A stretch of DNA of 64,000 nucleotides, from the NCBI RefSeq assembly GCF_056712565.1, contig NZ_CM160072.1; one strand, 5' to 3'. A program made the translations under genes and the position numbers. The notes beneath the pieces are model-generated. The model did no database searches, was not told the origin of the DNA, and worked only from the letters and a program-made list of their open reading frames with translations. Of this stretch, positions 1 through 64,000 are shown piece after piece. Numbering within the stretch: position 1 is the first letter of the stretch; each line of letters opens with the position of its first letter.

Positions 1-564
1 ATGACTTTCCCGCAGCTCCGCATCCGGATAGAGTTGGAGCATTAACGAATCTTTGCTCACCACTTTGCCATTATTGCGTATCAACGTTTCCATAATGGTG
101 TATTCGAACGCGGTCAGTTTGATCACTTCGTCATTAATAGATAATTCACGGCGGGAGAGATCAACCTGAAACGGTGGTAGCGAAATGACCTGTGAAGCCA
201 GACCACTATTACGCCGCATTAATGCCTGCATTCGCGCCATCACCTCTTCAATATGAAACGGTTTAGTCACGTAATCATCAGCACCGGCACTTAATACTTC
301 GACTTTGTCCTGCCAGCTCTCACGGGCGGTTAATACCAGAATCGGCAGTGAAACATCATTGCTACGCCAGCGGCGAATCAGTGACAGACCATCCTCGTCA
401 GGCAATCCGAGATCGACAATCGCAATATCAGGTAAATGTTCATTGAGATAATAATCGGCTTCTTTGGCATCTTCTGCGTCATCGACCTGATGACCAGCAT
501 CCTGTATCTGAACTTTAAGATGGTGACGTAACAACGCATTGTCTTCAACAACCAGTACGCGCAT
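1..564 (-). CDS. phoP: Response regulator PhoP, N-terminal ~188 codons (3' end lies outside the window)
   Basis: Reverse translation from ATG at 562-564 gives [36 protein letters not shown]..., which I recognise as PhoP; gene runs off the left edge. Confidence 0.9.
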
Positions 565-624
565 TTTTATTTCTCCCTGTCTTAATTATTAAAATAGTGT
601 AACGCGATTATGTGGTTATGGGGG

Positions 625-641
625 TAAACATTAAATAAACC
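625..641 (-). promoter_or_regulatory. PhoP box direct repeat (GGTTTA-n5-TGTTTA) upstream of phoP
   Basis: Minus-strand sequence GGTTTATTTAATGTTTA lies about 60 bp upstream of the phoP start; matches the PhoP box consensus. Confidence 0.7.
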
Positions 642-732
642 AGCGGGGAGGGGAGGTAAAGTGAAAAAACAAAAAGTGGATAATCTTAATAAGCAGGCCG
701 GACAGCATCGCCATCCGGCACTGTTTTGAGGC

Positions 733-2106
<1,374 letters not shown>

Positions 2107-2748
2107 TCACAACTCCGGGGTTAAATGAGCAAGAATTTGTTTTGCCTGAGTGGTCAGGCGATTACGAGAAAACATCAGTTGCAGACGACCGCCGCCGACC
2201 TGGTGCCAGAGCACGGCGGCGCGAATGCCTGCCAGCAGGGTTGCGCGAACTTTCGCCTGCACCTGTGGGCTTTGCAGTACAGCAGGGGAACCAGTGACCT
2301 GAATGCGCGGGCCAAGCGGGCTGATAACATCAACATAGATGGCAGCCATCGCGCTCATCAGCGTTTCGGACTGTAAATCGAAGTGTTCGAGCTGGCGTTG
2401 CAGGCCGTTGATCCGGTTGCCCAGAGTGTCGAGCGCACCTTTCGCTGAGGAGAGTTTGCGCTCAAGCACCATCAGACTGAGTGTGTAGCGGGTTAATTCG
2501 GCGTTTAAGCCCTGGCGACTGCTGGCATTGAGTACGCCGAGCAAGGTTTCCAGCCCGACGCGCAGGTTGGCTTCGCTACCGCCAAAAACCGCCAGCGTTG
2601 AGCTGGGGTTCATATCGATAATACTGTTGAGTGAGACGTGTAGCGCATCGCCATCACAATGCCCCTGGTGAGCGAGTTGTTGCACCAGGCGTGCCGACTG
2701 ACAAATACCGGCAAGGGCGAGGGTGATGTCATAGTAATTCTTTGCCAC
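2107..2748 (-). CDS. hflD: High-frequency lysogenization protein HflD
   Basis: ORF (MNV)[31 protein letters not shown]...; start probably the GTG two codons inside the tracked ORF. Confidence 0.85.
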
Positions 2749-2783
2749 GTTCACTGCTTCCTTGTTTTAAGTAAAGATAATAA

Positions 2784-4405
<1,622 letters not shown>

Positions 4406-4414
4406 TTTGCATCC

Positions 4415-5068
4415 TTAATCTGTCGCGTCTCGCCATTCGCCATTGGCAAGATTATCCAAAGAGTAATCCCCCATCGCATAGCGAATCAGTCGCAGCGTGG
4501 GGAAACCAACATGGGCGGTCATGCGGCGCACCTGGCGATTACGTCCCTCATATAAGGTGATCTTCAGCCAGCTGGTGGGAATACTTTTGCGCTCACGAAT
4601 TGGTGGATTCCGCGGCCATAACCACGCGGGTTCTTCAACCAGCTCCGCGCCTGCGGGCAGGGTAGGGCCATCATTTAAGGTTACGCCATTGCGCAAGGCT
4701 TCAAGTGCGTCTTGTGTGGGAATACCTTCCACCTGCACATAATAGATTTTTCCGGTGCGTTTACCCGGCTGGGTTAAACGCGCCTGCAACGCGCCGTTAT
4801 TGGTCAGCACCAGTAACCCTTCGCTGTCGCGGTCGAGACGACCTGCCGCATACACCCCCTGAACCGGGATGAATTCTTTTAATGTTTTGCGTCCGGCTTC
4901 ATCGGTGAACTGCGGAAGAACATCGTAGGGTTTATTGAACAGGATCACACGCGTGGGCTGGTTTTCAGGTTTACGCCTGGTAGAACGTTGCGAGCTGAAT
5001 CGCTTAACCTGGTGATTTCTAAAAGAAGTTTTTTGCATGGTATTTTCAGAGATTATGAATTGCCGCAT
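4415..5068 (-). CDS. rluE: 23S rRNA pseudouridine synthase RluE
   Basis: 217 aa ORF; RsuA/RluE family motifs ([17 protein letters not shown]); conserved position upstream of icd. Confidence 0.88.
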
Positions 5069-5239
5069 TATAGCCTAATAACGCGCATCTTTCATGACGG
5101 CAAACAATAGGGTAGTATTGACAAGCCAATTACAAATCATTAACAAAAAATTGCTCTAAAGCATCCGTATCGCAGGACGCAAACGCATATGCAACGTGGT
5201 GGTAGACGAGCAAACCAGTAGCGCTCGAAGGAGAGGTGA

Positions 5240-6490
5240 ATGGAAAGTAAAGTAGTTGTTCCGGCACAAGGCAAGAAGATCACCCTGCAAAACGGCAAAC
5301 TCAACGTTCCTGAAAATCCGATTATCCCTTACATTGAAGGTGATGGAATCGGTGTAGATGTAACCCCAGCCATGCTGAAAGTGGTCGACGCTGCAGTTGA
5401 GAAAGCCTATAAAGGCGAGCGTAAAATCTCCTGGATGGAAATTTACACCGGTGAAAAATCCACACAGGTTTATGGTCAGGACGTCTGGTTGCCTGCTGAA
5501 ACCCTTGATCTGATTCGTGAATATCGCGTTGCCATTAAAGGCCCGCTGACCACTCCGGTTGGTGGCGGTATTCGCTCTCTGAACGTTGCCCTGCGCCAGG
5601 AACTGGATCTCTACATCTGCCTGCGTCCGGTACGTTACTATCAGGGCACTCCAAGCCCGGTTAAACACCCTGAACTGACCGATATGGTTATCTTCCGTGA
5701 AAACTCGGAAGACATTTATGCGGGTATCGAATGGAAAGCAGACTCTGCCGACGCTGAGAAAGTGATTAAATTCCTGCGTGAAGAGATGGGCGTGAAGAAA
5801 ATTCGCTTCCCGGAACATTGCGGTATCGGTATTAAGCCGTGTTCGGAAGAAGGCACCAAACGTCTGGTTCGTGCAGCGATCGAATACGCAATTGCTAACG
5901 ATCGTGACTCTGTGACCCTGGTGCACAAAGGCAACATCATGAAGTTCACCGAAGGCGCGTTTAAAGACTGGGGCTACCAACTGGCGCGTGAAGAATTTGG
6001 CGGTGAACTGATCGACGGCGGCCCGTGGCTGAAAGTTAAAAACCCGAATACCGGCAAAGAGATCGTCATTAAAGACGTGATTGCTGATGCATTCCTGCAA
6101 CAGATCCTGCTGCGTCCGGCTGAATATGATGTTATCGCCTGTATGAACCTGAACGGTGACTACATTTCTGACGCCCTGGCAGCGCAGGTTGGTGGTATCG
6201 GTATCGCCCCTGGCGCAAACATCGGTGACGAATGCGCCCTGTTTGAAGCCACCCACGGTACTGCGCCGAAATATGCCGGACAGGACAAAGTAAACCCAGG
6301 CTCTATTATTCTCTCCGCTGAGATGATGCTGCGCCATATGGGTTGGACTGAAGCGGCTGACCTGATTGTTAAAGGTATGGAAGGCGCAATCAATGCCAAG
6401 ACCGTAACCTATGACTTCGAACGTCTGATGGAAGGCGCTAAACTGCTGAAATGTTCAGAGTTTGGTGACGCGATCATCAAGAATATGTAA
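5240..6490 (+). CDS. icd: Isocitrate dehydrogenase (NADP); 3' ~165 bp is the prophage-adjacent copy of the att duplication
   Basis: 416 aa [41 protein letters not shown]...; classic Icd. Confidence 0.95.
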
Positions 6491-6541
6491 TCACTACATG
6501 TGTTAAATATTGAAACGGGCGTATAACACGCCCGTTGTTTT
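6327..6541. repeat. Left copy of the icd 3'-end direct repeat (attL side of prophage)
   Basis: About 215 bp here are repeated with a few mismatches at 53750..53966, including the icd stop codon and terminator hairpin. Confidence 0.85.
6513..6541 (+). terminator. icd rho-independent terminator
   Basis: Hairpin AAACGGGCGTATAACACGCCCGTT followed by GTTTT, 22 bp after the icd stop. Confidence 0.75.
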
Positions 6542-6557
6542 ATGATGATGTAAAATC

Positions 6558-6593
6558 TTCCCCAAAACTTTCCCCAAAACCCTTCCCCAAAAC
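6558..6593. repeat. Three tandem TTCCCCAAAAC repeats, candidate integrase arm-type binding sites
   Basis: TTCCCCAAAAC occurs three times with ~12 bp period between icd terminator and int; one further copy at 53621..53631. Confidence 0.5.
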
Positions 6594-6603
6594 TGGCTAT
6601 TTT

Positions 6604-7746
6604 CTATGCTGTTTTGATATCTACGATAATCCAGTCTTTACCACGATCATCATTGTATCGGTCGGTCATTTTTCTGGATTTATGGCCTAACAACTTTTGC
6701 GTATCCAGACCCTGTTCCCGATATAACCGTTCTGACAGAGATCGCTGCTCATGAAATGTGGGCGCAGTTCCTTGCTCCCATTTTATGCCACATTTTTCCC
6801 GGGCCTTTTTAAAAGCCGTTGTCAGAGTATTCGCAGAAACCTGGTCTCCTCTGTTTGCTTGAGAGGTAGTGTGACGGTAATGGACCAGATATTTACTAAC
6901 AACAGCATCCCTGCACTGAGATATAACTTCACGAAGGGTAATATTCAGAGCATCGCATTTCAGGTTAAGCGGAATAGCAAGTTTTGAACCGGTTTTTTCC
7001 TGAGTAATGTGCAACATGTCGTCCCATATATCAGAGAATTTCAAATTGCAGATATCGCCTAAACGTTGTCCAGTAACAAGAGCAAGTAGCATGCCGCATT
7101 TTAAATAGGGCTGCCGTCTGCTTACGCTGTCAAATATTGCCTGCCATTCGGGCAGTGACAATCTTTGGCGGTTTACTCGATTTCGTGGTTGTTTTGTTGC
7201 CTGCGCTGGGTTAAATCCTGGCGGAACATGTCCTGCGTGTTGTGCTTCTTTGAAGACGTCGATCAACACCATTCTCACGACTTGCGCCATCCTGTTATGA
7301 CCTTCAGCCTTTACAGCATCAATTATTTCGGCAATATCAAGTGCGGTAATATCCTTGAGGTGTTGCATTCCACAATGCTCACGGAAAAGACGAATGGGTT
7401 TGCCTTTTTGCCGATAGGAGTTGGGTCTTAGTTCATTATGTTGCAGCCTGTCCTCTTGGATAGAAATATATTTATCAAGCCATTCTGTCACCGTAATGTC
7501 TGAGCGCCTGCCTTTCATTCTTTCCAGACGCTCATTGACGCTTAATATTTGTCTGGTACGTTGTTCAGCAATAATGGTATTTGCTTCAGTAGCAACTTGT
7601 TTTGCTTCATTCTCATCAGTTCCTAAGCTATGAAAACGACCGGATAGTGGATGTTTGTATTGCCAATATACCTTTCCGGTTCGCTTATCTAATTTGCAAT
7701 ATAAATTGGGTATAGAGATTTTGTGAGATCGGGGTCTAGCAGCCAT
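6604..7746 (-). CDS. int: Phage integrase (tyrosine recombinase)
   Basis: 380 aa ORF directly beside the att repeat; C-terminal R..HxxR..Y-type catalytic region (LGHKSRKMTDRY); lambda-like int-xis arrangement. Confidence 0.88.
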   Translation of the reverse strand: MAARPRSHKISIPNLYCKLDKRTGKVYWQYKHPLSGRFHSLGTDENEAKQVATEANTIIAEQRTRQILSVNERLERMKGRRSDITVTEWLDKYISIQEDRLQHNELRPNSYRQKGKPIRLFREHCGMQHLKDITALDIAEIIDAVKAEGHNRMAQVVRMVLIDVFKEAQHAGHVPPGFNPAQATKQPRNRVNRQRLSLPEWQAIFDSVSRRQPYLKCGMLLALVTGQRLGDICNLKFSDIWDDMLHITQEKTGSKLAIPLNLKCDALNITLREVISQCRDAVVSKYLVHYRHTTSQANRGDQVSANTLTTAFKKAREKCGIKWEQGTAPTFHEQRSLSERLYREQGLDTQKLLGHKSRKMTDRYNDDRGKDWIIVDIKTA

Positions 7747-7972
7747 CAGCGATTATCCTTTGGAGTTTTGGGTTTGCGTTTATTGGGAGTTGCGGTTCTG
7801 CAAGCGTTCCTACAAAACGGGAATTTCGGTCAATCATCCAGTAGCGACCAACTTTTATAGCGGGTGGGGCCATCATTTTCCCTTGCGCGTATTTTTTCAG
7901 AACTCGCTCACTTGGTGCTAAGTCCCCAAATTCTTCTTTAGCCCAGTCCTGTAAAGTGATTAGTCGAGACAT
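7736..7972 (-). CDS. xis: Excisionase
   Basis: 78 aa ORF overlapping int start; MSRLITLQDWAKEEFG... resembles lambda-family Xis. Confidence 0.75.
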   Translation of the reverse strand: MSRLITLQDWAKEEFGDLAPSERVLKKYAQGKMMAPPAIKVGRYWMIDRNSRFVGTLAEPQLPINANPKLQRIIADGC

Positions 7973-8111
7973 TTGTCCTCCTCTTAGCTGCTGAGGGAGT
8001 TTGTGACCGATATATCTGACATGATATTAAGCTCATGGCAGGTACATCTCTTGACTGGTCATAGAGATAAATTTAATGCTGAGAAATGCAGTATTGAATT
8101 TATCAATTTTT

Positions 8112-8351
8112 CTATTTCCTGCGCATGTCACGTAACTTCTTAATGTGTTCTGCCGTTTCGATCTCTTCTGCTATCCGATCTGCATCAGCTTTATTCACAG
8201 GTTCAAAGTCATGATTAAAGCGGAACATGCTGGCGATACATGTTCTGCCTTTTCGGATGTAGTGAACTTTGTTGTGGGTAGAACGCAGGATTTTGCAGGG
8301 AGTGCCGTGGTGGTCGACGTACCAGGTGTTAGGGTCAATCACTCTGAACAT
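8112..8351 (-). CDS. Hypothetical phage early protein
   Basis: 79 aa ORF in the leftward early operon; no recognised domain. Confidence 0.4.
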   Translation of the reverse strand: MFRVIDPNTWYVDHHGTPCKILRSTHNKVHYIRKGRTCIASMFRFNHDFEPVNKADADRIAEEIETAEHIKKLRDMRRK

Positions 8352-8664
8352 TCTTGACCTTGTGTTGTGCGGATTGATATTCAGTGCTGATATTCACCTT
8401 TATAGCGAACACCTTTACCGGTTTATCGCCAAAGTGCGGATGTGTGATTGTCTTCACTTCATATCCGTCATACGGAACATCAATTCTGCGACTGGAATCG
8501 TCGCGCTTCGGATATCCCTTTGTGATAATCAGGCGGTCATATTCCCGGAACATAATTCGCTTATTCCAGTAGTCATTACACAAGCGATACTCTTCCGTTT
8601 TCTCTCCGCGAATCATGGCATCGAAGTATTCACTTTTAACAGCAAGTTGCAGGTTAGCCATCAC
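8335..8664 (-). CDS. Hypothetical protein, possibly ASCH/PUA-like
   Basis: 109 aa ORF MMANLQLAVKSEYFDAMIRGEKTEEYR...; pattern resembles ASCH domain proteins; assignment tentative. Confidence 0.45.
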   Translation of the reverse strand: MMANLQLAVKSEYFDAMIRGEKTEEYRLCNDYWNKRIMFREYDRLIITKGYPKRDDSSRRIDVPYDGYEVKTITHPHFGDKPVKVFAIKVNISTEYQSAQHKVKNVQSD

Positions 8665-8882
8665 TTAATCCCCCTTTGTTTGCGGATAAGCTCCAGATCT
8701 TGCTGGCAACTGGCGCAAGTCCGACAACCCTGAACGGCCAGGCGTCTTCGTTCATCTATCGGATCGCCACACTCACAACAATGAGTGGCAGATACAGCCA
8801 GGTAGTTCAGGCGGCGCATTTTTATTGCTGTGTTGCGCTGTAATTCTTCTATTTCTGATGCTGAATCAATGATGTCTGCCAT
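8661..8882 (-). CDS. TraR/DksA-family C4 zinc-finger protein
   Basis: 73 aa ORF with CxxC-n17-CxxC (CCECGDPIDERRRLAVQGCRTCASC), typical of phage TraR-like proteins. Confidence 0.7.
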   Translation of the reverse strand: MADIIDSASEIEELQRNTAIKMRRLNYLAVSATHCCECGDPIDERRRLAVQGCRTCASCQQDLELIRKQRGIK

Positions 8883-9268
8883 CTTTCATTAATCCCTGAA
8901 CTGTTGGTTAATACGCTTGAGGGTGAATGCGAACAATAAAAAAGGAGCCTGTAGCTCCCTGATAATTTTGCTTTTCATGTTCATCGTTCCTTAAAGACGC
9001 CGTTTAACATGCCGATTGCCAGGCTTAAATGAGTCGGTGTGAATCCCTTCAGCGTTACCGTTTCGCGGTGCTTCTTCAGTACGCTACGGCAAATGTCATT
9101 GACGTTTTTGGAAACTGCTGTCTGACTTTTTTGATTTCAGAATTAGCCTGACGGGCAATGCTGCGAAGGGCGTTTTCTTGCTGAGGTGTCACTGAACAAG
9201 CCCCATGTCGGCAAGCATAAGCACACAGAATATGAAGCCCGCTGCCAGAAAAATGCATTCAGTGGTTG

Positions 9269-9460
9269 TCATACCTGGTCTCTCTCATCTGCTTCTGCTT
9301 TCGCCACCATCATTTCCAGCTTTTGTGAAAGGGATGTGGCTAACGTATGAAATTCTTCGTCTGTTTCTGCTGGTATTGGCACAAACCTGACTCCAATTTG
9401 AGCAAGGCTATGTGCCAAATCAATACTCGTTCTTAACTCAACAGGAGATGCTTTGTGCAT
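9269..9460 (-). CDS. Hypothetical small phage protein
   Basis: 63 aa ORF in early-left operon; no recognised domain. Confidence 0.3.
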   Translation of the reverse strand: MHKASPVELRTSIDLAHSLAQIGVRFVPIPAETDEEFHTLATSLSQKLEMMVAKAEADERDQV

Positions 9461-13779: not shown

Positions 13780-14040
13780 CTGCCAGTCTGTTCCATTTGG
13801 CTTCCAGCGTCCTGCTGACGGTTAAATAGTACGATATGTACTTTACAAGATCAATACAATTTGTTGTAAGTTGGCGTGGTTTTTTATAACGCTTTGTATT
13901 TAATAGTGTTGTTTTTTAGCGTGGATGTATTGCCTCGGCGATGTAAGGAGAGATCAGAATTGCGTGGTTTAGTGGGTTGCATCTATTTATTTTTCAATAA
14001 ATATAATTGGTTATGTGTTTTTAGGTGGGCGAACGTGAGG

Positions 14041-16875: not shown

Positions 16876-17775
16876 ATGACAAATACAGCAAAAATACTCA
16901 ACTTCTGCAGAGGTAACTTTGCCAAACAGGAGCGTAATGTGGCAGATCTCGATGATGGTTACGCCAGACTATCAAATATGCTGCTTGAGGCTTATTCAGG
17001 CGCAGATCTGACCAAGCGACAGTTTAAAGTGCTGCTTGCCATTCTGCGTAAAACCTATGGATGGAATAAACCAATGGACAGAATCACCGATTCTCAACTT
17101 AGCGAGATTACAAAGTTACCCGTCAAACGGTGCAATGAAGCCAAGTTAGAACTCGTCAGAATGAATATTATCAAGCAGCAAGGCGGCATGTTTGGACCAA
17201 ATAAAAACATCTCAGAATGGTGTATCCCTCAAAACGAGGGAAAATCCCCTAAAACGAGGGATAAAACATCCCTCAAATTGGGGGATTGCTATCCCTCAAA
17301 ACAGGGGGACACAAAAGACACTATTACAAAAGAAAAAAGAAAAGATTATTCGTCAGAGAATTCTGGCGAATCCTCTGACCAGCCAGAAAACGACCTTTCT
17401 GTGGTGAAACCGGATGCTGCAATTCAGAGCGGCAGCAAGTGGGGGACAGCAGAAGACCTGACCGCCGCAGAATGGATGTTTGACATGGTGAAGACCATCG
17501 CGCCATCAGCCAGAAAACCGAATTTTGCAGGGTGGGCTAACGATATCCGCCTGATGCGTGAACGTGACGGACGTAACCATCGCGACATGTGTGTACTGTT
17601 CCGCTGGGCATGCCAGGACAACTTCTGGTCCGGTAACGTGCTGAGCCCGGCCAAACTCCGCGACAAGTGGACCCAGCTCGAAATCAACCGTAACAAGCAA
17701 CAGGCAGGTGTGACAGCCTGCAAACCAAAACTCGACCTGACAAACACTGACTGGATTTACGGGGTGGATTTATGA
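16876..17775 (+). CDS. O: Replication initiator O
   Basis: 299 aa; MTNTAKILNFCRGNFAKQERNVADLDDGYARLSNMLLEAYSGADL...; contains ori iterons. Confidence 0.95.
   Translation: MTNTAKILNFCRGNFAKQERNVADLDDGYARLSNMLLEAYSGADLTKRQFKVLLAILRKTYGWNKPMDRITDSQLSEITKLPVKRCNEAKLELVRMNIIKQQGGMFGPNKNISEWCIPQNEGKSPKTRDKTSLKLGDCYPSKQGDTKDTITKEKRKDYSSENSGESSDQPENDLSVVKPDAAIQSGSKWGTAEDLTAAEWMFDMVKTIAPSARKPNFAGWANDIRLMRERDGRNHRDMCVLFRWACQDNFWSGNVLSPAKLRDKWTQLEINRNKQQAGVTACKPKLDLTNTDWIYGVDL
17224..17350. repeat. ori-lambda: four iterons plus AT-rich region inside O
   Basis: Four ~19 bp ATCCCTCAAAACGAGGGA-type repeats then AAAGAAAAAAGAAAAGATTATT. Confidence 0.9.
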
Positions 17776-57497: not shown

Positions 57498-57539
57498 TGC
57501 AACAGCCTGATTATTTAACAGGTTAGCTATGAAGTCGTT

Positions 57540-57812
57540 ATGAAGACATCTGATAATGAAAGTATAAAATATGAAATTACTGGCCAGGCGGTGCTCCAGA
57601 TACTGCGCATGAAGATAAATTTTTCGTTGCAGACTCTTATTAAGCAATTACTCGTAATGAAATCGGCTGAGGAAAATACTTTCCGACGAGATTTAATTGA
57701 CAGCATAATTCGTGATTTTAGCAACAGTGATACAGGAGGGCCAAACCGAAGAACAGCGATAGCTGACAATAAAAGTATGTTCACTGGTAAGAAAATAAAC
57801 AGAATACATTAA
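57540..57812 (+). CDS. ymgA: YmgA connector protein
   Basis: 90 aa MKTSDNESIKYEITGQAVLQILRMKINFSLQTLIKQLLVMKSAEEN... Confidence 0.85.
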   Translation: MKTSDNESIKYEITGQAVLQILRMKINFSLQTLIKQLLVMKSAEENTFRRDLIDSIIRDFSNSDTGGPNRRTAIADNKSMFTGKKINRIH

Positions 57813-57840
57813 AATTTCATAAGTAAGATGAGAGGTTACC

Positions 57841-58107
57841 ATGCTTGAAGATACTACTATTCATAATGCAATATCTGATAAAGCGTTATCAAGTTACTTT
57901 CGTAGTTCAGGTAATTTGTTAGAAGAAGAGTCTGCTGTGTTAGGGCAGGCTGTGACCAATTTAATGCTTTCAGGCGATAATGTTAATAATAAAAATATTA
58001 TCTTAAGTCTGATACACTCCCTGGAAACAACAAGTGATATTCTCAAAGCTGATGTGATTAGAAAAACACTGGAAATCGTGTTGCGATACACAGCTGATGA
58101 TATGTAA
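57841..58107 (+). CDS. ariR: AriR (YmgB) acid-resistance/biofilm regulator
   Basis: 88 aa [49 protein letters not shown]... Confidence 0.85.
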
Positions 58108-58219
58108 CTTTTAATTATAAAGTATAAGTTTATAGAAAACTCATTCATCTTATTTTTGTCTGTCGCTTTAGACTATACACAGCATAATTTTATTGGATCA
58201 CTATTCCTGCGAGGCTGAC

Positions 58220-58468
58220 ATGAATAATTCAATCCCAGAGAGATTTATTTTTCAATGTGCTTTGTTTAAAAATCTCGAGAGGGAGGTGTTCATGACACAT
58301 GGATATGTTGATAGTCATATTATTGCTCAGGCTTTACGCTTGCGTTTAAAAGATGAGACCAGTGTTATTCTTTCTGATCTCTATCTGCAAATCTTGCAGT
58401 ACATTGAAATGCATAAGACTACACTAACGGATATCATTATTAATGACAGGGAATCTGTGCTCTCTTAA
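58220..58468 (+). CDS. ymgC: YmgC
   Basis: 82 aa from MNNSIPERFIFQCALFKNLEREVFMTHGYVDSHIIAQALRLRLKDE... Confidence 0.75.
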   Translation: MNNSIPERFIFQCALFKNLEREVFMTHGYVDSHIIAQALRLRLKDETSVILSDLYLQILQYIEMHKTTLTDIIINDRESVLS

Positions 58469-58807
58469 AACTTGAGTAAGGTTTTTGAATAAACATCAGC
58501 TGTATCACTATGCTGATGCAAAGTGAGCATTTCAGGCGTTATGCTTTCTTAATATATCCGCAATATCAGAGGGCAAACAGGAATGGAGAGCGCTCGTTTT
58601 CCATTCTTGACGCCTGATATCCCGCCTAATTTGTTTAATTCTGCCTACATTGTGCTAAAAAATTAATAGGCTAGATGAAGTTGGAGAAAATTTTATCTTC
58701 GGCGTGGATATTTGTGATGCTCTCTACCATGCTCTCTGTAGACCCCAGCGCGAGCGAATGAACGTCTCTTTAGCTTCTACAGACTTATCGATAAAGGCTT
58801 TGGGATT

Positions 58808-59659
58808 TTGATATTTATTCTGTTAATCGCCTGCGCCGCTGCCTTCCTGCTTGATAGGTATTTCAATAAAAGCGCAACGCCTGAAGAGATCCTGCGACGG
58901 GCTATAAATAATGGGGAGATCGTCCCTTTTTACCAACCTGTGGTAAATGGTCGGGAAGGGACATTGCGGGGAGTTGAGGTGTTAGCCCGCTGGAAACAAC
59001 CTCACGGTGGATATATATCACCCGCGGCATTTATTCCACTTGCTGAAAAATGCGGATTAATCGTTCCGCTTACGCAAAGCCTGATGAATCAGGTTGCCAG
59101 ACAGATGAACGCTATCGCGAGTAAACTGCCGGAAGGTTTTCATATTGGGATTAATTTTAGCGCCTCGCATATTATTTCGCCGACGTTTGTCGACGAGTGC
59201 TTAAATTACCGTGACAGTTTTACCCGCCGCGATTTAAACCTTGTTCTGGAAGTCACCGAGCGTGAGCCATTAAATGTTGATGAAAGTCTGGTTCAGCGGT
59301 TGAACATTCTGCATGAAAATGGTTTTGTCATCGCGCTGGATGATTTCGGTACTGGTTACTCAGGGCTTTCTTATCTGCATGACTTGCATATTGATTATAT
59401 CAAAATTGATCATAGTTTCGTTGGCCGCGTCAACGCAGACCCAGCATCAACCCGAATTCTGGATTGTGTATTGGATCTGGCGCGTAAACTTTCGATCAGT
59501 ATCGTCGCTGAAGATGTCGAAACGAAAGAACAATTTGACTATCTGAACCAAAATAATATCACATTTCAGCAGGGTTATTATTTCTATAAACCTGTTACAT
59601 ACATCGACCTGGTCAAGATTATCCTTTCTAAACCGAAGGTGAAGATTGTGGTTGAGTGA
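58808..59659 (+). CDS. pdeG: EAL-domain c-di-GMP phosphodiesterase (PdeG/YcgG-like), apparently lacking the N-terminal sensor region
   Basis: 283 aa ORF with one N-terminal TM helix and EAL domain (EVLARW...LEVTEREPL...DDFGTGYSGLSYL...KIDHSFV); only ~340 bp of non-coding DNA upstream. Confidence 0.7.
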   Translation: MIFILLIACAAAFLLDRYFNKSATPEEILRRAINNGEIVPFYQPVVNGREGTLRGVEVLARWKQPHGGYISPAAFIPLAEKCGLIVPLTQSLMNQVARQMNAIASKLPEGFHIGINFSASHIISPTFVDECLNYRDSFTRRDLNLVLEVTEREPLNVDESLVQRLNILHENGFVIALDDFGTGYSGLSYLHDLHIDYIKIDHSFVGRVNADPASTRILDCVLDLARKLSISIVAEDVETKEQFDYLNQNNITFQQGYYFYKPVTYIDLVKIILSKPKVKIVVE

Positions 59660-59790
59660 AAATTGATCAGCAAGGCCATGGTGCGGTGTAATTATAGACA
59701 GCTAATTAGCTCGTTGCCTCTTGTTACTATTGTTCATTCTTTTGTTTGCTATAATTGTGTGAAAGTTTTGACTGGATTGCCATTAGTAGC

Positions 59791-60009
59791 ATGAACAATA
59801 GTAATAATCTGGATTATTTCACTCTCTATATCATCTTTTCCATTGCATTTATGCTGATCACTCTCCTGGTCATCCTTATTGCAAAACCCAGCACCGGGCT
59901 GGGAGAAGTGCTTGTGACGATAAATTTGCTTAATGCCCTGGTTTGGCTGGCGATCAATCTGGTTAATCGATTAAGGGAAAGACTCGTCAGCCACAGGGAT
60001 CAGCACTAA
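59791..60009 (+). CDS. ymgF: YmgF inner-membrane protein
   Basis: 72 aa from MNNSNNLDYFTLYIIFSIAFMLITLLVILIAKPSTGLGEVLVTINLLNALVWLAINLVNRL... Confidence 0.8.
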   Translation: MNNSNNLDYFTLYIIFSIAFMLITLLVILIAKPSTGLGEVLVTINLLNALVWLAINLVNRLRERLVSHRDQH

Positions 60010-60406
60010 TCTTTCAGTTTCTCACTGCCAGTATGCGGCTGAATGGGTTGCTGGCAGTGAACCCCTGGATCATTGAAGGAAAGGAATTATTGCACAAATA
60101 GTTGTCAACCCTGGTGTTATCACAGTTGTTTTATATATCAGTGAAATAATTTCCATGGCAACTGTTGATAATTTTGATGTCGAAGAGTTATTTGTTAAAC
60201 AAAATAGTTACCCCAAAGTGATCAATGTCATGAAAATAAGCTAAAAATGATAATGCTGGCTTATTTATCATTTAAATATTGTCGCTGTTTATCTATTTAA
60301 ATTTCTTGTGCTTTTGTTTTTATCTTTGCCTTCCGTTTTGGTAATCTGAACTCATAGGTTATTTGACCAGGAATGTTTGTTAATCCAATGAATGGATGGT
60401 TAATCT

Positions 60407-61926
60407 ATGAAACTGAAAAAACTCCCCGGATTTAGTTTAGGACTTATTGCTCTGGCGGTGGGTAATGCATATGTAACGCAATTGTTGGATATTTATAGTA
60501 TAATTTCCTATATAACCGATGAAGAATCACCGATTGAAATCAAAAATAATACTTCTACAAGTAATGGGGAGTATCTAATCACTTAAGACGAAAGCCATGC
60601 TGTGAAAGTGGATGACGGTGTAACTGGATATATACATAATGCCAGTGTGATGACTAGTGGTGATGGATCTTATGGTATTTCTGTTGATAGCCAAAACAAA
60701 GTATTATATATAAGCGATAGCAATATTAAGACGCTCTGAAAGCGTATCTGACAAAGAAAATGGAGGGATAACAGCCAGCGCAGTAGTCAGTGAATTTGGT
60801 GGCACCATCGTTATGAATGGTGATAATTCAGTCGAGACGAGGGGGCATATTCAGCGGGACTTTTAAGTCAGATTAATGATTCTGGGACTGTGGAAAATAA
60901 CACCCGTCTTGAAACCACAGATAAAACGAACATTGTTACCTATGGGGAAAAATGCAGTAGGAGTTCTTGCATGTTCAAGTCCTGGAGAGTCTCGAACATG
61001 TGTCGATGCTGTAGATGATGAAGTTTGTGATTCTAACAGTTACGAAGTTATTAGCCGTGCTGATTTAAAAATGAATGGTGGTTCCATAACAACTAATGGT
61101 ATTAATAGCTATGGTGCTTATGCTAATGGGAAAAAAGCATATATTAATTTAGATTATGTGGTACTTGAAACTGTGGCTGATGGAAGTTATGCAGTTGCTA
61201 TTCGACAAGGTAACATTGATATAAAAAAGTTCTATTACAACAAATGGCACTAAAGCCCCCATTGCAAAAATATACAATGGTAGAGAGTTATTTTTTTCCA
61301 ATGTCACTTCAGAATCAACAGAAACGCCTACCCCCGTCCTGCGACCCGAAGCTGGCAGTTACGTCGCCAACCTGGCAGCCGCTAACACTCTTTTTGTTAT
61401 GCGTCTGAACGATCGTGCAGATGAAACGCGCTATATCGATCCTGTAACTGAACAGGAGCGTTCAAGCCGATTTTGGCTACGTCAAATTGGCGGGCATAAT
61501 GCCTGGCGTGACAGCAACGGACAGTTGAGAACGACCTCGGCACAGGCCATCTGGATGGGCGTCGATCATAATGTGCACACGGAAGCCAATGGCTCACGTA
61601 TTGAGAATGACGCAAATAACAATATCCAGACCCGACTTGGTTTCCACACCTTTATTCGTACTCAGGAGAAAAACAGCGGTCCGCACGGTGACGACTTTGA
61701 ACCTTTTGTTGAAATGAACGGGATCCATAACAGTAAAGATTTTGCTGTCTCAATAAACGGTGTGAAAGTTGAACAAGCCGGGGCGCGTAATCTGGGGGAA
61801 ATTAAACATGGCGTAAATGGCAATCTGAATCCTGCGGCCAGCGTCTGGGGTAATGTGGGCGTGCAGCTGGGTGATAATGGCTACAATGACAACGCAATGA
61901 TGGTGGGCCTGAAATATAAGTTCTGA
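60407..61926 (+). pseudogene. ycgH: Disrupted autotransporter gene (ycgH-like), multiple frameshifts and stops
   Basis: Signal-peptide-like start MKLKKLPGFSLGLIALAVGNA then several in-frame stops; later fragments 60876..61253 and 61399..61926 end in an autotransporter beta-barrel terminus (...MMVGLKYKF). Confidence 0.65.
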
Positions 61927-61983
61927 TCCCGCCATTAGCTAAAAAACCGCGTCGAATTCATCGACGCGGTAACATATGAAATA

Positions 61984-62310
61984 TTATTTTTTGCCGATAG
62001 CACGCATGGTGTCATCAATTGCCGTGATCAACAGCATTTGCGGATCTTTAGCGCAAACCTGATTCAGTTTTTCTACCACTTTGGCGCTCAGTTCCGGAGA
62101 TTGCTCAATTTTTAAATCACGGCTGGCAACGCTGGCATTACCCATTACCGCAACAATTTCTGCAACCTGTGCGCTGTCAGTTTTTGCCATTTCGTTGGCT
62201 TCTGCGCAAGTAATATAGGTTTCTGATGGCAAACCGTTCTTAATATTGTAGTCCTGCGCCCAGGTCATTGGTGCGAAAACAAACAGACCCGCCAGTAAAG
62301 CAAATTTTTT
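61984..62310 (-). CDS. ymgD: YmgD periplasmic protein
   Basis: Signal peptide MKKFALLAGLFVFAPMTWAQ then conserved YmgD body. Confidence 0.8.
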   Translation of the reverse strand, partial: KKFALLAGLFVFAPMTWAQDYNIKNGLPSETYITCAEANEMAKTDSAQVAEIVAVMGNASVASRDLKIEQSPELSAKVVEKLNQVCAKDPQMLLITAIDDTMRAIGKK

Positions 62311-62322
62311 CATCATCATTCC

Positions 62323-62667
62323 TTATTTCATTTTACCCAGAATTGCACCACCCGTACCGCCAATCACGGCACCTTTAATCGCCCCTTCGAGGCCATTGCC
62401 GGTCAGAACGCCAGTGACAGCACCAACGGCGGCACCCACTTTTGCACCTTTACGCGCATTTTTACCGTCGCGGCCTTTTTCTGTTACTGCACCAACACCA
62501 GCGCCAACAGCTGCACCTTTCAGTACGCCATTAACACCATTGCCAGTAAGTAAACCAACGCCTGCGCCTAGCAATGCACCTTTCGTGGTGCGATTCATAT
62601 CCGCCATCGCTGGCGTGGAGCAGAACAATGCTGAGATAAGCCCGAAGGCAAGTATTTTTTTCTTCAA
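62323..62667 (-). CDS. ymgG: YmgG glycine-rich protein
   Basis: 114 aa; signal peptide plus GxxxG-rich repeats ([32 protein letters not shown]). Confidence 0.8.
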
Positions 62668-63259
62668 CTTAGTTGTCCGGTATTAAGTAAGTTGCACACA
62701 CAATAATTTCGTCTTCAATTAAGATCTGCTTAACTAAAGAACGCTCGCTATTATTCAGATAATTCAAAATGAGCGTGACTGTGATGATAGGAATTATGTT
62801 TTTTACGGGAATGAGAATAATCTCAAATGAGAAATAACTCATTGATTGACAATATTTTTATTCAAGAAGTGTCATTGACTGTTAACGCAATGTTGTAAAG
62901 GTAAGATAATCTGATTTATCAATATTATTGTGTGATTGTTATGTGAGCAGAAGATATTCATTAGCAACGATTACATTAGTCATTTTATTTTGTGGACGGC
63001 CTCATTGTCGAAAAATAAGCGTACGACAGTATTATCAGAAAAGAGTGATTTTTTATCCAACAACACTTCAGCGCACTGCGTTTAAAAAATACCTCTTTCT
63101 TATACGGGATATCATCATTTCATCATGATGTCTTTGATGAGCGGTGAACACAATACATTTGCGCTGTCTCTTCAGGATGAATCCCCTGGTCTGGTTCCTG
63201 CGGGCTGATGTTGCAGCAGAGCTAAGGTCACTTAGACGCTACTATCATTTATCCAATGC

Positions 63260-63586
63260 ATGGAATCGAAATCAGTCGATACCCGCAGTATATATCGTGA
63301 ACTGGGCGCAACGCTGAGTTACAACATGCGTCTGGGGAACGGTATGGAAATTGAACCCTGGCTGAAGGCGGCTGTGCGCAAAGAATTTGTCGATGATAAT
63401 CGAGTGAAAGTGAATAGTGACGGTAATTTTATCAATGATTTGTCGGGTAGACGTGGAATATACCAGGCAGGTATTAAAGCCTCATTCAGCAGTACGTTAA
63501 GCGGGCATCTCGGGGTGGGGTATAGCCGTGGTGCCGGTGTGGAGTCCCCGTGGAATGCGGTGGTCGGTGTGAACTGGTCGTTCTGA
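63260..63586 (+). pseudogene. ycgI: Autotransporter C-terminal fragment (ycgI-like)
   Basis: 108 aa ORF ending ...VGVNWSF, a beta-barrel terminus without passenger domain or signal peptide. Confidence 0.55.
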
Positions 63587-63960
63587 CCATCAACGATTAA
63601 ACTGCGTTTCGGCGCTGTTTTTGTTTACCGGGTGCTAAAAGGGAAAATTCTGGGGCAAAAAAAAGCCCGTCAGTTACGGCGGGAAACCTCATCCTATGGG
63701 AGAACAATGAATAATGAAATTGCGGGGTTATCATCTCCCAGGATATCCACGCTAACAATAAGGTTATTTACTCAACCAGGCGTAAACATTTTGTTCTGTG
63801 CGTGGGAACAGCCTTAAGGTGTAAAGGGGGAGGGGGAAATAGCAATGAATAGTATCAGCAAGAATACTCGCCGCTTTACCACAACGTGGATGAGAGGGAT
63901 GAAAAACTCAAGGCAGAGATGACTCTGCCTTGAAGATAAATGCGCTTTTACAGGGGGCTT

Positions 63961-64000
63961 ATTTCAGCTCTTCTGCTTCCGGTAAGGTCACGTTCAGCTC
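63961..64000 (-). CDS. minE: Cell division topological specificity factor MinE, 3' end only
   Basis: Reverse translation gives ...ELNVTLPEAEELK*; gene continues beyond the right edge. Confidence 0.75.

Follow-up and report, generated by a model that had tools for sequence, protein, structure and literature searches.

The window analyzed here is a 64,000-nucleotide (nt) stretch of DNA (NCBI RefSeq assembly GCF_056712565.1, contig NZ_CM160072.1), and the present work concerns the remains of two autotransporter genes, ycgH and ycgI, within it. The segment from 59500 to 64000 is Escherichia coli chromosome and was matched by 5,424 of 5,426 complete E. coli genomes. Its genes are arranged in the order pdeG', ymgF, ycgH', ymgD, ymgG, ymgI, ymgJ, ycgI' and minE, where the primes mark remnants, so that both autotransporter remnants occupy the positions that ycgH and ycgI have in strain K-12; the gene names given in a preliminary description of this DNA, including those of ymgD and ymgG, were thus right by gene order. 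The first remnant lies between ymgF and ymgD and shares 94.8 to 96.1% nt identity with ycgH of strain C10 in three collinear blocks. The second lies between ymgJ and minE and has the same truncation breakpoint as K-12 ycgI, a query across the deletion junction being covered to 100% in K-12 MG1655. Both remnants are on the plus strand, as are all features below unless stated otherwise.

The ycgH pseudogene (60407..61926) is what remains, 1,520 bp, of an AIDA-I-type autotransporter gene with an intact length of 2,649 bp. Its lesions were mapped against the intact C10 allele, which is continuous over 2,649 bp and encodes 882 amino acids (aa). Nucleotide identity to C10 is 95.5% across the retained blocks, which are collinear, show 91.5 to 98.6% identity individually and have the lesions in between. 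The open reading frame (ORF) that starts with the ATG at 60407 begins MKLKKLPGFSLGLIALAVGNAYV..., a Sec-type signal peptide, and continues into the first passenger residues. It comprises 59 codons (60407..60586) and ends at codon 60, where a GAA>TAA nonsense mutation relative to C10 is present (60584-60586). At position -1 of the predicted signal-peptidase site, intact alleles have A and the window has V (A23V). Further downstream, four small indels alter the frame: a +1 insertion at 60733, a 1-bp deletion at 60841..60842 (reference nt 435), a +1 insertion in an A-run at 60948 (AAAA>AAAAA) and a 2-bp deletion at 61227..61228 (reference nt 821-822). The preliminary description had recognized a signal peptide and a beta-barrel terminus separated by multiple stops and frameshifts. 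The two ends are indeed present, as seen from the ORFs and from matches to PF03797 and TIGR01414, and the stops and frameshifts correspond to the one nonsense codon and the +1, -1, +1 and -2 indels; overlooked, however, were two large deletions of 735 and 393 bp.

It is these large deletions, rather than the stops and frameshifts alone, that constitute the main lesions. The intact YcgH protein contains a Pertactin/AC_1 domain at residues 405-521 and an Autotransporter beta-domain at 601-860. The 735-bp deletion (junction at 61307..61308; reference nt 903-1637, codons ~302-546) takes out the passenger's C-terminal part together with the entire autochaperone domain (PF18883, residues 405-521), and the 393-bp deletion (junction at 61538..61539; reference nt 1869-2261, codons 624-754) takes out 131 residues from the middle of the beta-barrel. 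No repeats were found at either junction, where microhomology amounts to just 0 to 1 nt; an 11-nt overlap between the blastn blocks was rejected as a true repeat. What follows the first deletion is a 175-aa ORF (61399-61926) that contains the linker, the first barrel residues and, after the second deletion, the last 128 barrel residues. It terminates in ...MVGLKYKF, an autotransporter signature, matches only profile positions 139-254 of 255 of PF03797 (E=1.2e-07) and is also recognized by TIGR01414 (E=2.6e-24). Since the autochaperone domain and 131 barrel residues are physically gone, neither reversion nor ribosomal slippage could restore ycgH.

The ycgI pseudogene (63243..63586) is the 3' end of a YpjA/EhaD-like autotransporter gene, of which the final 344 bp (114 codons) are left. 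Earlier, a beta-barrel C-terminus and nothing else had been noted at 63260..63586. This assignment holds, and the start of the remnant is refined to 63243. A 1-bp deletion at 63257/63258 places the first 15 nt in a different frame, so that the open frame begins only at 63260. The resulting 108-aa ORF (63260-63586), which ends in ...VNWSF, matches positions 164-254 of 255 of PF03797 (E=1.4e-10) and TIGR01414 (E=8.3e-21). The intact comparator at this locus is found in strain S1bESBLb, in which an uninterrupted gene of 3,375 bp, with the annotation YpjA/EhaD-like, encodes 1,124 aa; the gene is also intact in elppa4 (1,128 aa) and frameshifted in LHM10-1. The window matches the S1bESBLb record up to position 13888 and resumes at 16955, so that 3,066 bp are missing; the lost segment begins 36 bp before the ATG and extends to about codon 1,010, and the junction, at 63243, has 1 nt of microhomology. 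The 344 bp that remain show 94.8% identity to the 3' end of the intact S1bESBLb gene.

Upstream of this junction, the ancestral leader region of ycgI (62889..63243) has been retained. Its paralogue is the sequence that precedes ypjA/ehaD; the two leaders share 86 to 88% identity (87.8% between window positions 62901-63243 and the region upstream of K-12 ypjA, positions 127-470 of the K-12 record). Two annotated small ORFs lie within the leader of this dead gene, namely ymgJ (62943-63128) and a 39-codon ORF of 120 bp (63089-63208); a similar 120-bp ORF is annotated upstream of ypjA. The intact gene at the ycgI locus is itself a ypjA/ehaD paralogue, with 85 to 93% nt identity, and the homology continues for about 390 bp ahead of the start codon. 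A recent conversion of this gene from ypjA was considered and rejected, given identities of just 85 to 93% and lengths of 3,375 versus 4,581 bp.

Neither remnant has the features of a functional type Va autotransporter. An in-frame signal peptide followed by the remainder of the protein is absent from ycgH, in which the ORF stops at codon 60, and from ycgI, which has neither a start codon nor a signal peptide. A full-length 12-stranded barrel, as defined by PF03797/TIGR01414, is encoded by neither of them, whereas the intact allele matches profile positions 1-254. The passenger with its PF18883 autochaperone falls within the 735-bp deletion in ycgH and is wholly missing from ycgI. Both genes are thus disrupted relative to intact homologues at the same locus, which are present in C10, S1bESBLb and elppa4 for ycgH and in S1bESBLb and elppa4 for ycgI. 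In accordance, RefSeq annotates both stretches in near-identical genomes as frameshifted, incomplete autotransporter pseudogenes, and this annotation, together with the lesions mapped against the intact alleles, bears out the preliminary view of pseudogenized adhesin-type autotransporters.

One could regard the frameshifts as slippage switches of a phase-variable, recoverable gene, and one of them, AAAA>AAAAA at 60948, is indeed situated in a short homopolymer. However, essential coding sequence is gone (1,128 bp from ycgH and 3,066 bp from ycgI), a nonsense codon and indels outside repeats are also present, and no tandem-repeat tract is involved. Slippage would not suffice for restoration, for which recombination with an incoming intact allele would be needed. 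The probability of such a switch is negligible.

We subsequently consider the distribution of the lesions in the species. The junctions were surveyed in the 5,426 complete E. coli genomes with junction-spanning queries, 100 nt long for ycgH, and genomes in which the query was fully covered were counted. The 735-bp junction was present in 1,043 genomes and the 393-bp junction in 1,044 (about 19%), and these near-equal counts indicate that both deletions travel together. The ycgI junction was far more frequent, being found in 4,598 genomes (85%), K-12 MG1655 and the type strain DSM 30083 among them, whereas an undeleted 5' end at this locus was detected in 407 genomes (7.5%). The codon-60 stop, the -1 and -2 indels and both large deletions are shared by three further short ycgH alleles, from an O18:H1 isolate, AREA_492 and Eco-15, and the -1 and -2 deletions are common to all short alleles examined. 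The +1 insertion at 60733 is also present in O18:H1 and AREA_492 and absent from Eco-15, and that at 60948 is found only in the window and in strain SF-173. Each of the three other short alleles adds private lesions; those of Eco-15 include an 11-bp deletion in the signal peptide, which destroys the 59-aa ORF, and a new stop at codon 295.

These data bear on the notion that the lesions are sequencing or assembly artefacts and that the gene is really continuous. One point in favor is the +1 insertion at 60948, which sits in an A-run and does not occur in the other three short alleles examined. However, SF-173 is 100% identical to the window in this region, position 60948 included, the core lesions are identical in O18:H1, AREA_492 and Eco-15, and the three deletion junctions recur in 1,043, 1,044 and 4,598 complete genomes produced by many laboratories on many platforms. 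The preliminary description had left room for a continuous frame on resequencing, and this is excluded by the presence of the junctions in about 1,043 (ycgH) and 4,598 (ycgI) independently assembled genomes. We consider an artefact to be vanishingly improbable.

The anticipated existence of intact alleles in other strains was confirmed for both loci. A continuous ycgH ORF is annotated in C10 (882 aa), S1bESBLb (887 aa) and elppa4, and at the ycgI locus proteins of 1,124 and 1,128 aa are encoded by S1bESBLb and elppa4, respectively. A full-length gene of the YcgH type was present in 2,136 genomes, many of them K-12-like. Among 25 full-length entries in a sample spread over these genomes, 14 had the K-12 length of 2,648 bp and only 4 were of in-frame length. 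K-12 ycgH resembles the window gene in its location between ymgF and ymgD, its signal peptide, type of passenger and barrel, and in being a pseudogene. Its sequence is near-identical to the intact C10 allele. Unlike the window gene, it has kept its full length of 2,648 bp and is disrupted by the loss of 1 bp at nt 2570 and by a stop at codon 507; its annotation reads 'frameshifted; internal stop'. The routes of inactivation in K-12 and in the window differ, and they are therefore independent events.

About a third of the genomes carry a second type of allele at the ycgH locus, the ECIAI39_1904 family, whose passenger is unrelated. IAI39 has this type in intact form, which adds a further intact allele with a different passenger, and the alleles of this type in the sample are mostly split, as illustrated by CPww7, in which a 1-bp deletion occurs at nt 178. 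Both types (YcgH in C10, 2410-5058; ECIAI39_1904 in IAI39, 2410-5058) encode 882 aa and have the signal peptide, linker and barrel in common, these parts being near-identical, and the exchange of the passenger at this locus resembles the replacement of a cassette. The nucleotide match between the ECIAI39_1904 type and the window is confined to the first 174 nt and to linker/barrel blocks of 215 and 462 nt (~680 nt). It is the YcgH type, and not the ECIAI39_1904 type, from which the window allele derives. There are thus three routes by which ycgH was killed: a frameshift and a stop in K-12, two deletions and small lesions in the lineage of the window, and a 5' frameshift in many IAI39-type alleles. 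At least three independent inactivations have therefore taken place at this locus, and only a minority of alleles are intact.

The history of ycgI is different in that K-12 and the window share the identical 3,066-bp deletion breakpoint. Secondary frameshifts differ by lineage: that of the window has one at nt 16 of the remnant, the K-12-like C10 allele has one at nt 109, and IAI39 has none. These frameshifts are independent, and the pattern is that predicted for neutral decay after one old deletion. In the cattle strain 109, a different and longer autotransporter remnant (753 bp), cut by IS1203, is found at ycgI; upstream of it, IS1203, an ompT-containing segment and ISEc8 stand in place of the ymg genes and ycgH (strain 109 record 1-9345).

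We also compared the two genes with known autotransporters. The closest solved structure to intact YcgH is that of AIDA-I (PDB 4MEE), whose autochaperone and beta-domain construct aligns to YcgH residues 429-882 (E=2.3e-76). However, the NCBIfam scores of YcgH are far under the cut-offs for AIDA-I, YfaL/EhaC, MisL and ShdA, and it is not an orthologue of any of them; the window gene further departs from the AIDA-I type in that it lacks the AC_1 domain and half of the barrel. The ycgI remnant is 94.8% nt identical to the last 345 nt of both K-12 ypjA and the 1,124-aa gene, the intact ycgI-locus paralogue (WP_158178722.1 / WP_024186571.1). Homology is limited to these 345 nt and to the upstream leader and does not extend over the full length of YpjA/EhaD. 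What ycgI keeps is the last ~114 of the 1,124 codons of the ycgI-locus gene, or of the 1,526 codons of ypjA, without start, signal peptide or passenger. The remnant is derived from a member of the YpjA/EhaD family and is not itself a member.

Taken together, these data indicate, with a probability of about 0.96, that ycgH and ycgI are pseudogenes left over from type Va (AIDA-I-type) autotransporter adhesin genes and are no longer functional. Both remnants probably lack a product and a function, and the adhesin role of the intact forms is presumed from family membership only. In ycgH, translation from the kept start halts after 59 codons, and the frame is broken four times further on. In ycgI, a single 3,066-bp deletion fused the old leader to the last 114 codons, the frameshift being acquired later. 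The lesions are best explained by deletion in an ancestor and subsequent inheritance within E. coli, probably also by spread through recombination, and the remnants would now drift neutrally and accumulate lineage-private lesions. All three large deletions (735, 393 and 3,066 bp) are multiples of 3, for which the chance is about 1 in 27 for three events; this may be a coincidence, or it could hint that the ycgH deletions, at least, arose while the frame mattered.

The substitution pattern is compatible with such drift. The four short ycgH alleles share the deletions and hence diverged after them, and among their 41 variable codons, 12 changes are synonymous and 29 nonsynonymous, where ~78% nonsynonymous changes are expected under neutrality (binomial p=0.35). 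For the part corresponding to the 175-aa ORF, 7 variable codons are synonymous and 14 nonsynonymous. Several observations weigh against the view that the remnants are dead. The pairwise ratio of nonsynonymous to synonymous substitution rates (dN/dS) between the window remnant and intact alleles is 0.33 to 0.47, no higher than that among intact alleles (0.32 to 0.40), lineage-specific (three-taxon) counts are too few to show relaxation, and the fit to neutrality comes from the within-class comparison of four sequences alone. The pairwise and three-taxon values are uninformative, because much of the divergence predates the inactivation and the counts are small. In addition, the 175-aa and 59-aa ORFs are still open, some fragments are listed as 'hypothetical protein' in RefSeq, and a filamentation screen in strain UTI89 enriched for clones that reach from the ycgI homologue across minCDE (PMC6206680).

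The latter points could be read as signs that the residual ORFs (59, 175 and 108 aa, all open in the window) have been co-opted, for instance as small proteins destined for secretion or for the membrane or, next to minCDE, as modulators of cell division. However, the authors of the filamentation screen suggest that linkage to minCDE may account for the enrichment instead (PMC6206680). The ORFs are also poorly conserved: the 11-bp deletion in Eco-15 destroys the 59-aa ORF, the +1 insertion at 60948 in the window itself re-frames the middle ORF, and the 108-aa ORF of ycgI is broken at another position in the K-12-like lineage. The neutral pattern among the short alleles likewise argues against co-option, and, to judge from the AIDA-I-type architecture, a barrel devoid of 131 central residues, or the last ~110 residues on their own, cannot close 12 strands. 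Co-option is therefore very unlikely.

Likewise very unlikely is a residual role of the DNA around ycgI. The leader (62889-63243) and the 3' end (63243-63596) exactly bracket the deleted segment, and both also match the ypjA locus. The two arms could form a standing recombination scaffold, so that some of the 407 genomes with the full gene would be re-acquisitions, or else a residual ORF or ymgJ could have gained a function of its own. We favor the interpretation that both ycgH and ycgI are non-functional relics.

The two genes flanked by the remnants, ymgD (61984-62319) and ymgG (62323-62667), both on the minus strand, are intact. Their protein accessions are identical in every genome examined, and the comparison with C10 revealed 5 synonymous and 0 nonsynonymous differences for the two genes together. 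Between the convergent ends of ycgH and ymgD, a consensus scan predicts a terminator-like site for ymgD, with a G+C-rich hairpin and a T-run (61946..61970, minus strand). Counts of promoter- and terminator-like sites were not above those in shuffled sequences, and only the terminator-like hairpins of ymgD and minE stood out. An Rfam scan of positions 57500-64000 at E<=0.1 returned no RNA family.

Upstream of ymgF, pdeG (ycgG, encoding a CSS-EAL cyclic-di-GMP phosphodiesterase) is also truncated. It occupies 58762-59659 in the window, and only the part that encodes the EAL domain (58766-59659) is left. The lesion is a clean 671-bp deletion (S1bESBLb record 7596-8266, by blastn) that reaches from 41 bp ahead of the gene through codon 210, and RefSeq labels the gene 'missing N-terminus'. 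With pdeG, a third gene in this 6-kb stretch has been killed by deletion. As for the closest relatives, SF-173 is 100% identical to the window over 59500-64000, except for an insertion sequence, IS1, and the O18:H1 isolate is 99.6% identical. The insertion, an IS1A, is located between the pdeG remnant and ymgF (SF-173 record 441-1138; window ~59660-59790) and is absent from the window, which therefore is not SF-173 itself.

Both pseudogenes are already known from annotation and from the literature, and nothing new in kind is reported here. K-12 ycgH has been listed as 'pseudogene- autotransporter', and a chromatin immunoprecipitation sequencing peak of sigma-S RNA polymerase was reported inside it (K-12 coordinates 1219400-1219949) (PMC4447067). 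The gene serves as a 'pseudogene site' for chromosomal integrations and is a routine neutral site (PMC11566304), whereas UTI89_C1357 was described as a pseudogene homologous to K-12 ycgI (PMC6206680). Outside annotation hygiene, the relevance is small. The exact junction sequences could act as lineage markers, and the intact alleles point to strains that are suited to studying YcgH or the YpjA-like adhesin of the ycgI locus. The two loci were lost in different ways, since the ycgI deletion is a single old event now present in ~85% of the genomes, as opposed to the repeated inactivation of ycgH. The genome analyzed, whose closest matches are extraintestinal human isolates, thus lacks two autotransporter adhesins that are still encoded on the chromosome of a minority of E. 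coli.

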